From positions 41,388-105,387 of IMG/VR virus record IMGVR_UViG_3300035670_000075: a stretch of DNA of 64,000 nt, one strand, 5' to 3'. Every line of letters starts with the position of its first letter. The stretch's first letter is position 1. A program made the translations under genes and the position numbers. This document shows, piece after piece, positions 47,435-60,184 of the stretch. The notes under the pieces were generated by a model that had not been told where the DNA came from, did no database searches, and worked only from the letters and a program-made list of their open reading frames with translations. The DNA comes from a virus.

Positions 47435-47458
47435 GTTCGATTCCCGCCGCCTCCACCA
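47435..47458 (+). other. attP core = 3' end of tmRNA (ssrA)
   Basis: GTTCGATTCCCGCCGCCTCCACCA (T-loop plus tmRNA-type 3' acceptor strand, CTCCACCA) just downstream of the integrase; remainder of the RNA gene absent. Confidence 0.85.
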
Positions 47459-47531
47459 ATAACCCTGCGCTATCCGGCGTTATGACGGCAATTTAACACC
47501 TCATAACGCCGCATATCCCCTCGTAAACATT

Positions 47532-56979: not shown

Positions 56980-57123
56980 GTTTACACCTGTTGTTACTGT
57001 GATTTTCCTTTAGTGTATGTCATTTTTTGCGTGTATTCAACATGTGATAAATATGTGGTTTACTCATATATTGACATATCATCAACCATCGTTCCCGCTC
57101 GGCGCGTGGGAACGCGGAAAAAC

Positions 57124-57224
57124 ATTGTCTGAATCAGGATTTTCAGGATTAAAAGATTCACAGGATAAACAATGCGCTTTAATCCTGAAAATCTTAAAAT
57201 CCGGTAAATCCTGATTCAGACAAT
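57124..57224. repeat. MITE-like palindromic element with 19-bp terminal IR
   Basis: ATTGTCTGAATCAGGATTT...AAATCCTGATTCAGACAAT with internal AGGATT sub-repeats. Confidence 0.8.
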
Positions 57225-57307
57225 AAGTATTTTCGCAGCCTCCCCGCATGGCAACAAAAATAAAAAATGCTGTATCATGACAACTCCAATCACAACAGGA
57301 GTTATCC

Positions 57308-57706
57308 ATGAACAAGCTATTTGCACTACTCATTGCAGCCACCCTGTCAGGCTGTGTCACCGTGCCGTCCGGTGCGCCGGTTAAACAACTGCTCGGCAAA
57401 CTGAAAGTAACCAAGTCCACCAACGGCGTCGCCTGCAAAATCGACGCGACGGTGGAAAATCTCAATCAACACCAACTTAAGCCAGTGTTGGAGTGGGTGA
57501 TTTATGACGTGGACGGCAATACCATGACCAGCGGCACGACCCCGTATGATCTGATTGACGCCGGGAAGAACCAGCAGAAAATGCTAACGCTGGTCATGGG
57601 CAGTTGCGACAGGCTCGGCAAGCTGGCGGTGAATAGTGCGCGAATGCGCGGGCTTGACGGTATCCCGATTGCTGGCGTAGAGGGCATGAATGCGGTGTGG
57701 AAGTAG
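57308..57706 (+). CDS. Lipoprotein (moron)
   Basis: Signal peptide with lipobox LSGC; RBS AGGAG. Confidence 0.8.
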   Translation: MNKLFALLIAATLSGCVTVPSGAPVKQLLGKLKVTKSTNGVACKIDATVENLNQHQLKPVLEWVIYDVDGNTMTSGTTPYDLIDAGKNQQKMLTLVMGSCDRLGKLAVNSARMRGLDGIPIAGVEGMNAVWK

Positions 57707-57726: not shown

Positions 57727-57842
57727 CATCTCGTTCCCACGCGCCGCGTGGGAATGCCGAAGCACCGCGCTGCGGTGCGTACCGTAAGCCGCTCCGCAGC
57801 GCGGAGATTCCGCGTTCCCACGCAGCGCGTGGGAACGAGATG
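57727..57842. repeat. REP/MITE-like element with 17-bp terminal IR and internal hairpins
   Basis: CATCTCGTTCCCACGCG...CGCGTGGGAACGAGATG. Confidence 0.8.
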
Positions 57843-57963
57843 TGATGCTATATAAATACGTCATCTCACCATATATCCATATCATACATAAAATCTTCTT
57901 GAAATCACCTCGTAAATTGCGTAAAATTTTCAGCATCAAATGGCAACAAGCACAGGTGCAAAT

Positions 57964-58704
57964 ATGCAAAATTTTCCGCAAATCAATTTCGCCGATGTGG
58001 TCGGCGAACTCCTAGAAAAATACAAAACCCCCTACGCAGTCGGCGTGGAGATGCAGCGCCTAAACTCCGCAGTCGGCGGGCGTAGCTACGGCTCGGCGGT
58101 CAAGCGACTGCACAGTGGCGAGGTAAAAGAACCCGGCTTCACGGCGGGCGTTACGTTGCTGCTGTTGGCGGGAAGGCAGGTTGAAATCAGTCGGCGGGGC
58201 GGCGACAGCACTGCCAGTCCTCAAAGGACTGGCAGTGCTGGTGGTGATGAAATCACCCGTCGGTGGGACGGCGACGCCATGCGGCGGTTGCGGGAGTCGT
58301 GTTCGGTGGATGGTTGGTGGAACTTGAGCGGCGGCGAGTTCGCGGCGTTGATTGCCGAGAAGGGCGGGCGTGACATTTACCGCGCCACTAGCGTATGGCA
58401 AATAGAATCTGGTATTGCACCAGTGCCGCAATGGGTTAGCGCGGCGCTAGATAAGATACAAGCCGATGTCGATAGCGGGAAAATACCGCGTTCGACACGG
58501 GTACGCAGTTCGCTGCACAAGTCCAGCGAACCAACCAATTTAGTGCAGCAAGTTTTGCAGGCAACCGGCATGAGTATGGAAGCACTCGGCGGGAAAATGA
58601 ACCCACCCATCACGCGGGCGGCGATTTCGACAATGGCAAGAAGCGGGAAAATCCCTAAGCGGCATATTGAGGTATTGCAAAGCCTATTAACTAAGTCGGC
58701 GTAG
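57964..58704 (+). CDS. Multi-HTH-like DNA-binding protein
   Basis: Three HTH-like segments (RLHSGEVKEP.F..G; LS..EFAALI...SVWQIESG; MSMEALG...ITRAAISTM). Confidence 0.6.
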   Translation: MQNFPQINFADVVGELLEKYKTPYAVGVEMQRLNSAVGGRSYGSAVKRLHSGEVKEPGFTAGVTLLLLAGRQVEISRRGGDSTASPQRTGSAGGDEITRRWDGDAMRRLRESCSVDGWWNLSGGEFAALIAEKGGRDIYRATSVWQIESGIAPVPQWVSAALDKIQADVDSGKIPRSTRVRSSLHKSSEPTNLVQQVLQATGMSMEALGGKMNPPITRAAISTMARSGKIPKRHIEVLQSLLTKSA

Positions 58705-58737
58705 TCTTGTAACACCAACTGTATAGGCGGCGTGAGT

Positions 58738-58779
58738 AGCGCCAGTCTGATGACTTGTTATCAGACTGGCGCTTTTTTT
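58738..58779 (+). terminator. Rho-independent terminator
   Basis: GCGCCAGTCTGAT...ATCAGACTGGCGC followed by T7. Confidence 0.75.
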
Positions 58780-58966
58780 GTGTGCGCGAAATCACCCGGC
58801 GGCTACCCTGGTAGTGCGCGGAAGCGCTGCAAAGATGGCAAAATATAGCGTAAATACCTAGTATTTTAGTCAAGAAAAAAAATCCCGAAAAACCCTAGTA
58901 TATAGGCATTTTTTTTAATGTTATCAAATACTTATAAAAATGCGTCTTTTTTAGTGTTTTGTGACA

Positions 58967-58995
58967 TAGACAAATATCTTGACACTATATATAGT
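58967..58995 (+). promoter_or_regulatory. Sigma70-type early promoter overlapped by palindromes
   Basis: TAGACA-17-TATAGT; CACTATATATAGTG and GAGCACACTAT-6-ATAGTGTGCTC. Confidence 0.6.
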
Positions 58996-59169
58996 GAGCA
59001 CACTATTTAATTATAGTGTGCTCTATAAAAGTTTGATGTAGTCGCTAGCGCGTGGCTTTTGTCGCGTGGCTTGGGTGCGATTACTTCTTTTATGCCTTAG
59101 TGCTCAAACTTAATAGCGCAGTGCTCTATAAAAATTTGATTTTGCTTGATTGCTTGCGATTTTTCCCAA

Positions 59170-59920
59170 ACTGAAAATTCCGACTATATGCGTTTATCGC
59201 ATGGTGACGGCTTGGCAGATCGAACAAGTGAAGGTGAGCAGTATACATAGCTGTTTAAGGGTATAGGCCATACCCTTAATATTCCGCAAGTGCCTAGCCT
59301 GAATTAACAGGGAGTAGGGATAAAACAGCGTTGAAACATAGCAAACCAGACCGGGAATAGTGAAAAAAACGACAGATCAGGCAGATGAAAAACATTATAG
59401 ATTGCTATTTAACAATTTGCATATACAGTACAACGAACCGAGACGGAACGTAGCGGGGCGTGTGCCTGTAGGTTAGCGCGGCTTTCGCCCGTGGCGTTTT
59501 GCGCCCTGGCGATTGCGTTTACGTGCCTACCTTTGGTGGTATGGGTTGGGGCTATTGCCTGTCGTCCAGCTTTATACCTACAGGATAACGGATTGCGTGA
59601 TGTTGTGCAAGTCACGCAAAGACACACGCCTTATGATACCCGGCGATAGTCGCGCCCATACTTCACTTTAGATCAGCGCGGAGTCGGGGAAGTCTTGTCA
59701 GAAATGGCAAGCGTCCATGATGTCTCAGTGAAGGGATATTCGTTGCCCGCTTATATTCCTTGCCTGTGAAGGTCAATCGTAAATATAAGTAACCGACTGA
59801 TAATCGGATAATCCGGCTATGTGAAACACCATAGCGGCGGGGGCTGTTTGCGTCTAGCAACAGCTTACTTAGGGTACGGATTTTTCTCTACAACCCCGTG
59901 ATGTTTTGCGGGGTTGTTTC
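59170..59920 (+). ncRNA. Candidate large structured RNA (boundaries approximate)
   Basis: No credible ORF; nested long-range helices and GNRA-capped hairpins; terminator-like hairpin at 59890-59920. Confidence 0.6.
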
Positions 59921-59980
59921 TCAATAGCATTCTACAGAGTGTTATTGAGTAAACAATCCCACCACACAGAGAGAAATCCC

Positions 59981-60184
59981 ATGAAAAAATCCTATTCCAG
60001 CGTAGGCGATCTTGCGCCTGAAGTGTTGGCAATCTATGCCACGCCGAAAGGCAAAAAAGACTCACTCCAAGAAATTCACCGCCGTCGCCGCAATGCGCCT
60101 GCTTGGGCGCGGCGTGAGTTTGACAAGGCTTTTCCCAAACTTGCGCCGCAAATTAAGCGCACGCAAGGCTATGTAAGGAGTTAA
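59981..60184 (+). CDS. Early hypothetical protein
   Basis: First ORF after the structured region. Confidence 0.55.
   Translation: MKKSYSSVGDLAPEVLAIYATPKGKKDSLQEIHRRRRNAPAWARREFDKAFPKLAPQIKRTQGYVRS

Follow-up and report, generated by a model that had tools for sequence, protein, structure and literature searches.

The leaders of rRNA operons and the nut sites of phage lambda carry boxA signals on the transcribed strand, soon after the promoter, through which Nus factors enable RNA polymerase to withstand Rho and hairpins met further downstream (PMC5725501, PMC2800207, PMC4807359). The BoxA consensus of the gamma-proteobacteria is GYTCTTTAANA (PMC5725501). In the phiEco32-like coliphages (Kuravirus/Suseptimavirus), repeated boxA-type elements precede about 0.8 kb of gene-free sequence, which is followed by a gene. 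Other untranslated phage leaders, the P4/P1-type immunity RNAs and the HK022 put RNAs, control their own termination by means of internal complementary segments or hairpins, and large non-coding RNAs (ncRNAs) such as GOLLD and ROOL are also located in phages. Here we describe a 1.27-kb gene-free stretch (58705-59980) in a 64,000-nt window, the whole stretch of DNA that was analysed, which corresponds to the right-hand 64 kb of a 105,387-bp IMG/VR virus record with a completeness estimate of 95%. Our tentative interpretation, held at a little less than even confidence, is that the stretch combines an operator-controlled region with a long untranslated leader that ends in an attenuator-type hairpin and is possibly guarded by boxA-like signals.

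All the elements that enter into this interpretation (palindrome, repeats, boxA-like motifs and hairpins) were present, and are given below together with the flanking genes:

57940-58704, + strand: 254-amino-acid (aa) open reading frame (ORF) with positive coding potential, encoding a possible DNA-binding protein with several helix-turn-helix (HTH) motifs (Cro/C1-like)
58738-58773, + strand: predicted intrinsic terminator closing the 254-aa gene, a 16-bp stem with 8 GC pairs followed by TTTTTTT
58967-58995, + strand: sigma-70-like promoter TAGACA-17-TATAGT, with 10/12 consensus matches
58996-59023, no strand: operator-like perfect palindrome GAGCACACTAT-N6-ATAGTGTGCTC, with 11-nt arms, 100% complementary
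59018-59035, + strand: repeat copy 1, GTGCTCTATAAAAGTTTG, with boxA-like GCTCTATAAAA (10/11 to GYTCTTTAANA, mismatch T6A)
59121-59138, + strand: repeat copy 2, GTGCTCTATAAAAATTTG, with the same boxA-like GCTCTATAAAA (10/11 to GYTCTTTAANA, mismatch T6A)
59255-59279, + strand: local hairpin TTAAGGGTAT-aggcc-ATACCCTTAA, 10 bp and perfect, in the minimum-energy fold
59403-59415, + strand: copy 3, boxA-like TGCTATTTAACAA (12/13 to the rrn boxA; consensus position 4 is A)
59431-59745, + strand: core with two mutually exclusive helix sets of near-equal constrained folding energy
59694-59711, + strand: GAAA-tetraloop hairpin, mean pair probability 0.98 in both folding contexts, the only robust element of the core
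59890-59917, + strand: terminator-like GC-rich hairpin of 12 pairs followed by TTCTC, a minimum-energy helix with a z-score of -5.4 in its 200-nt window
59917-59952, no strand: imperfect inverted repeat with 17-nt arms (82% complementary), just 5' of the ribosome-binding site of the first downstream gene
59981-60184, + strand: first downstream ORF, 67 aa, with an arginine-rich stretch HRRRRNAPAWARRE; coding potential rises here

The positions 58705-59140 would act as a control region at the DNA level, in which the terminator of the HTH-like gene is followed by an AT-rich promoter-like region. The promoter-like site is overlapped by the palindrome, and the palindrome and the GTGCTC half-sites would bind a repressor-type protein. 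Positions from about 59000 to 59980 would form the 5' untranslated leader of a + strand operon starting with the 67-aa ORF, and RNA polymerase starting at the controlled promoter would have about 0.9 kb of untranslated RNA and the hairpin at 59890-59917 to cross on its way to the genes. Host NusB/NusE-type factors may be recruited by the three boxA-like motifs and would then protect the polymerase against Rho and the hairpin, as happens in rRNA operons and at the lambda nut sites. The promoter, the transcription of the leader, the binding of a repressor, the function of the terminator and the recruitment of Nus factors are all putative and were read from the sequence.

The original prediction, made for positions 59170-59920, had described a large gene-free stretch in an otherwise dense genome, and this was confirmed. 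By a crude gene call, the stretch was the largest gene-free gap of the 105-kb genome (the runner-up measured 381 nt), and the genome was about 92% coding. The longest stop-to-stop frame in the stretch was 78 codons, and in-frame hexamer coding potential, from a model trained on the 33 longest ORFs of the phage, was negative in all six frames over about 58630-59900 and positive over both flanking genes. The small ORFs of the stretch had no Pfam family match, a 65-aa minus-strand ORF had no counterpart in any protein on record, and reading the gap in the alternative genetic code 4 gave no credible ORF. Natural variants carried indels in the stretch: two additional nucleotides at 59516, which disrupted ORFs of 52 and 72 aa, and 1-nt indels at 59105, 59113 and 59184. 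These indels would shift the frame of every small ORF across them, which argues that the stretch is non-coding. The term “leader”, used in the same prediction, was reasonable, since the stretch lies 3' of the promoter-like site and the operator and 5' of the next + strand genes.

The control region starts behind the 254-aa gene. The HTH_31 match of the encoded protein was weak (E 0.017, below the cutoff), and an Atlas look-up led to HTH_3/HTH_31 clusters with scores below 0.9, no more than leads. Just 5' of this gene, at 57850-57935, a sigma-70 promoter close to consensus (TTGAAA, about 17 nt, TAAAAT) was read from the sequence. Beyond the terminator there was an AT-rich block (58800-59200, GC 0.33-0.39), which contained the promoter-like site and also a TTGACA at 58979-58984. 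The chance expectation of an 11-6-11 palindrome such as that at 58996-59023 was, by our own estimate, about 0.007 in 1.5 kb; this palindrome was not found in IMG/VR. Four GTGCTC/GAGCAC motifs, those of the palindrome included, were clustered at 58996, 59018, 59100 and 59121, and an 18-mer (GTGCTCTATAAAARTTTG) had two exact copies in the window (59018 and 59121) against 0.09 expected. Repeated elements of 18-26 nt, CGCGTGGCTT (two copies) and CCTAGTAT (two copies), spanned 58840-59140, and several palindromes were also present. The palindrome and the recurring GTGCTC half-sites look like an operator cluster.

The three boxA-like copies were all located on the + strand between 59019 and 59415, 3' of the promoter-like site and in ORF-free sequence. 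Copy 3 scored 10/11 on the 11-mer consensus (GCTATTTAACA), and a looser third copy of the 26-nt repeat was found at 59394. The degenerate pattern TGCT[AC]T[AT]TAA[AC]A[AG] occurred three times in both strands of the 105-kb genome, every time on the + strand of the leader; sites with at most one mismatch to GYTCTTTAANA were more frequent, 12 genome-wide, with 3 of them within 400 nt in the leader. Copy 3 (TGCTATTTAACAATTT) shared 15/16 bases with TGCTCTTTAACAATTT, a boxA followed by TTT that lies between the 16S and 23S genes of a Thiotrichaceae genome, and Thiotrichaceae are a possible host lineage of the phage, on thin evidence. Copies 1 and 2 retained the C at the critical position 4. The working boxA of lambda is two positions off the consensus. 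Tuned, weaker binding is part of the lambda mechanism, whose boxA departs from the consensus (PMC2800207), so the imperfect copies of this phage are not disqualified. These motifs may bind Nus factors and promote antitermination.

Downstream of the control region, the untranslated leader would measure about 0.85-0.9 kb and contained local hairpins at 59187, 59255, 59694 and 59841. The hairpin at 59890-59917 was not called by the terminator scan because its T tract is short. A promoter scan gave no promoter-like site between this hairpin and the 67-aa gene, so the gene probably depends on read-through. G exceeded C in 34/36 78-nt windows of the leader RNA, which would make it poor Rho-loading material. 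The word CGTG(R)(Y)GTT(K)TGC was common to three hairpin regions (59487-59506, 59594-59618 and 59893-59912), with pairwise matches within the chance expectation for 1.5 kb.

The 67-aa protein had no family match, and its Atlas look-up was uninformative. Its sole relative, 91% identical, retains the arginine-rich stretch HRRRRNAPAWARRE. The N protein of lambda has a similar arginine-rich motif and gene position, and the 67-aa protein recalls such small RNA-binding antiterminators by these two traits; no homology or fold evidence for an N-like antiterminator was found. The 67-aa ORF is followed on the + strand by a 69-aa ORF, then by a gene whose 474-aa product has a GmrSD_N-type domain, and by one for a pyrimidine-dimer glycosylase. 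The gene-free stretch as a whole sits about 4 kb from the contig end.

The locus resembles the rrn and lambda nut leaders (PMC5725501, PMC2800207, PMC4807359) in that boxA-like 11-13-mers are placed on the transcribed strand soon after a promoter-like site, ahead of a long untranslated RNA and a terminator-like hairpin. It differs from them in its imperfect copies (C4A or T6A) and in the absence of a boxB-like hairpin within about 20 nt. The leader of lambda N is roughly 0.2 kb long, whereas that described here is about 0.9 kb, and no relation of the 67-aa protein to N could be detected. The P4/P1 immunity and HK022 put RNAs offer an analogy only: there was no sequence or family match, and repeated complementary boxes were not above chance.

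The phiEco32-like leaders are alike in layout. The phiEco32 gap and its counterparts in seven diverse coliphage relatives were compared with the window, and an nhmmer profile was made of the 8 copies (74-100% identity). The four boxA copies of phiEco32 are all perfect consensus matches, whereas those of the window are imperfect; window copy 2 was locally the most similar to the phiEco32 boxA cassettes (84% over 25 nt). The 16-mer ATTGCTATTTAACAAT (59401-59416, boxA with C4A) was identical to the nearly invariant 3' arm of a conserved hairpin in the coliphage leader RNA (columns 46-61 of the coliphage RNA alignment); its possible pairing partner in the window is GTTGAAACATAGCAA (59330-59344), with a loop of 57 nt between the two. 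The same 16-mer had 45 matches in IMG/VR, about the chance frequency and mostly in unrelated coding DNA. The coliphage profile gave nothing significant in this genome (the best match in the leader had an E value of 34 over 17 nt), and neither this search nor blastn showed sequence homology to the phiEco32 leader RNA, with only short boxA-type words in common. The phiEco32-like phages also differ from this phage in host, in lifestyle (an integrase gene is present here) and in gene content. The layout is analogous, and the shared word is a lead only.

Several observations weigh against the operator and leader interpretation. The number of promoter-like sites in the region was not above the shuffle expectation, and 58967-58995 is a consensus match only. 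No perfect match to GYTCTTTAANA was found genome-wide. Copy 3, nearest of the three to the rrn boxA overall, carries the C4A substitution, which is a null (loss-of-function) boxA mutation in E. coli (PMC5725501), and its likeness to the 26-nt repeat may be due to chance. Copies 1 and 2 carry T6A, and a double mutant altered at both T6 and C4 did not bind (PMC5725501); these two copies also overlap GTGCTC half-sites of the operator-like cluster and could be no more than protein-binding sites in the DNA. None of the three copies was followed by a boxB hairpin (a GNRA-like loop about 10-20 nt 3' of boxA); from the GAAA hairpin at 59694 to the nearest copy the distance is 280 nt. The G over C bias is not specific to the leader, with positive GC skew also found in the flanking genes. 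The boxA rules of E. coli may not hold in the host of this phage.

Database comparisons indicated that the phage is nearly an orphan. No match was obtained by blastn against all GenBank phages, and when IMG/VR was scanned with the primase and with the 254-aa and 474-aa proteins, no relatives came up. Among 5.8 billion proteins, one near relative each was found for the 474-aa and the 67-aa protein, encoded on contigs of 1.1-1.2 kb. Scans of metagenomes gave no match to the 67-aa alignment and, for the 20-mer of the GAAA hairpin, one unrelated contig, a chance match. Public runs from subsurface, soil or other metagenomes contained two related sequences: a variant (X2) and a relative of about 92% identity (X4).

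Among the other explanations considered, an unlikely one, but the best placed of them, is that the stretch is largely non-functional spacer, made of decayed genes or horizontally acquired filler and possibly containing an unrecognised small protein (for example a 38-aa GTG ORF at 59360 or a 52-aa hydrophobic ORF at 59491). Its folding and repeat content did not stand out from the genome background, indels were tolerated, and the divergence of X4 was 7-9% in the gap and 5-8% (locally 16%) in the flanking genes; just upstream of 59552 the sequence was replaced or strongly diverged in this relative. However, a filler of 1.27 kb would be unusual in a phage with about 92% coding sequence and no other gap above 381 nt, and there was neither residual coding signal in any frame nor a family match. 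As for the small proteins, the 59516 insertion breaks the 52-aa and 72-aa ORFs, and the 65-aa minus-strand ORF is absent from protein records.

A lower probability was given to a discrete, functional, large structured ncRNA of a new family, about 0.5-0.9 kb long, with its start near 59000-59420 and its end at the hairpin 59890-59917, which we regard as improbable. The size class and the phage location would be those of GOLLD, ROOL and other large ncRNAs, boxA-like motifs are typical 5' of long untranslated RNAs, and a promoter-like site and a terminator-like hairpin delimit what is the largest gene-free stretch of the genome. No RNA family was recognised: searches of the whole window with 4227 Rfam models gave 0 matches at the gathering score, and at E values up to 10 the region 58600-60100 gave noise only (the best was cow-rumen-2, on the opposite strand, with 20 bits against a cutoff of 66). 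GOLLD, ROOL, HEARO, OLE, raiA, group I/II introns, RNase P, tmRNA and 6S all stayed below the gathering threshold, and ARAGORN found neither tRNA nor tmRNA. The original prediction had proposed a large multi-domain structured RNA that it could not assign to a family; the second part was borne out by these Rfam searches, which returned nothing usable.

The helices on which that proposal was based exist. The outer helix (CAACGAA at 59431 with TTCGTTG at 59739) was present, as were GGCGTGTG (59457) with CACACGCC (59623), CCTGTAGGT (59465) with ACCTACAGG (59576), TTGCGTGA (59593) with TCACGCAA (59612), and CTTCACT (59661) with AGTGAAG (59727) or the alternative partner AAGTGAAG (59226). The GAAA hairpin at 59694-59711, the TTAAGGGTAT/ATACCCTTAA hairpin at 59255-59279 and the pair CTTATATT/AATATAAG were also found. 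Perfect inverted 7-9-mers were 2-3 times as frequent as expected from dinucleotide shuffles (p 0.02-0.04), and as many were found in 21-29% of equal-length windows of the genome. The helices are not clearly more than chance would give.

Folding stability was of the same kind. The z-score of 59170-59920 was -4.0 on the + strand and -2.2 on the - strand, a difference in favour of an RNA made from the + strand; without the terminator-like hairpin the + strand value was -2.9. In 26 random 751-nt windows of the genome the z-score was -1.89 +/- 1.93, with 4/26 at or below -4.0. The core (59420-59750) showed no strand asymmetry (-2.05 on the + strand, -2.07 on the - strand), and the background for 331-nt windows was -1.42 +/- 1.75, with 24% below -2. 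Among 200-nt windows only two terminator-type hairpins and the operator palindrome stood out. The stretch folded modestly better than its shuffles and ordinarily for this genome, a result that goes part of the way towards refuting the proposed RNA by the folding check suggested with it.

Two competing helix sets were present in the core. In set A, that of the original prediction, 59457-59473 pairs with 59576-59584 and 59623-59630; in set B, the one that prevails in the minimum-energy fold when a larger context is taken, 59538-59559 pairs with 59642-59662. A nested structure can accommodate only one of the two sets, and their constrained energies were -127.6 and -124.0 kcal/mol respectively. 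The pair probability of set A was about 0.75 when 59420-59750 was folded, but about 0.003 for 59400-59800, a shift of the boundaries by 20-50 nt. The CTTCACT/AGTGAAG helix had a pair probability of at most 0.01.

Set B includes four G.U pairs and is hence specific to the + strand. The X2 contig, which covers 59403-59675 (273 nt) with 10 substitutions and a 2-nt insertion with respect to the window, converts two of these pairs to Watson-Crick (59546 U>C and 59551 G>A), but it also breaks predicted pairs (59509 G>U and 59573 U>G). Its other changes were unpaired, and set A was untouched by any. On refolding, X2 lost 5.7 kcal/mol overall: the 59474-59537 hairpin lost 7.8 and helix B gained 2.5. 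The pattern is chance-like, neither preserving nor clearly breaking structure. In X4, the 5' strand of helix B1 (59538-59546 with 59654-59662) is GGUAUCCAGGA instead of the GGUAUGGGUUGGGG of the window, and this relative, as described above, diverges about equally in the gap and in the flanking genes. The numerous helices amount to ordinary local structure, some of it in competition, and not to a defined multi-domain fold. With z-scores within about one standard deviation of the genome background and competing folds that flip with the boundaries, the large multi-domain structured RNA is unsupported.

To about the same low degree as a discrete ncRNA, the stretch might be a DNA-level element, a replication origin or an iteron-like protein-binding platform adjoining the replication module. 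Upstream of the stretch, minus-strand primase and helicase genes (4-9 kb away) are followed by small + strand genes, and the AT-rich block at 58800-59200 with its CGCGTGGCTT and CCTAGTAT repeats and palindromes would suit such an element, as would an IHF-consensus-like ATCAAATACTTA at 58924 (our own reading of the sequence). However, the minimum of cumulative GC skew was near 57000-57500, outside the gap, no DnaA-box-like motif was seen by us in the gap, and where a palindrome overlaps a promoter-like site, an operator is the more typical case. The repeats are also confined to 58840-59140, which leaves about 0.8 kb (59140-59980) unexplained.

The least probable alternative, which we consider very doubtful, is an independent, sequence-unrelated case of a recurring phage design also seen in the phiEco32-like coliphages. 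Variant boxA copies would here protect a folded RNA of about 0.8 kb, the first product of a controlled promoter, which would have a function of its own (for instance as decoy, scaffold or regulator) in addition to forming the 5' end of the message, and AUUGCUAUUUAACAAU would be a functional motif common to both, such as a variant site for a Nus factor or a phage protein.

Further observations concern the surroundings of the locus and the host. Three REP-like (repetitive extragenic palindromic) sequences of the form CGTTCCC(A/G)C(G/T)C-N4-GCGTGGGAA(C/T)G were located at 57090-57116, 57733-57759 and 57815-57841, flanking a 132-aa ORF (57308-57706). The pattern was found exactly in more than 120 bacterial genome stretches (Desulfobacterales, Planctomycetota, Methylobacter, Pseudomonas and Thiotrichaceae among them), and being spread over so many phyla it does not identify the host. 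Beside the integrase gene, a 25-nt stretch (47435-47459) had matches in several gamma-proteobacteria, with 100% identity to a Thiotrichaceae genome and 96% to Methylobacter genomes. It is consistent with an attachment core in the end of a conserved RNA gene, and is too short to name the host.

The analysis removes an over-strong structural claim and puts a regulatory map in its place. Should the RNA prove to function independently, it would count as a new large RNA from a phage. If the operator and leader interpretation holds, host-type antitermination signals would precede a very long leader in an uncultivated temperate phage of subsurface/wetland metagenomes, and this would strengthen the case that boxA-type control of long untranslated phage transcripts extends beyond the lambdoid phages and T7.

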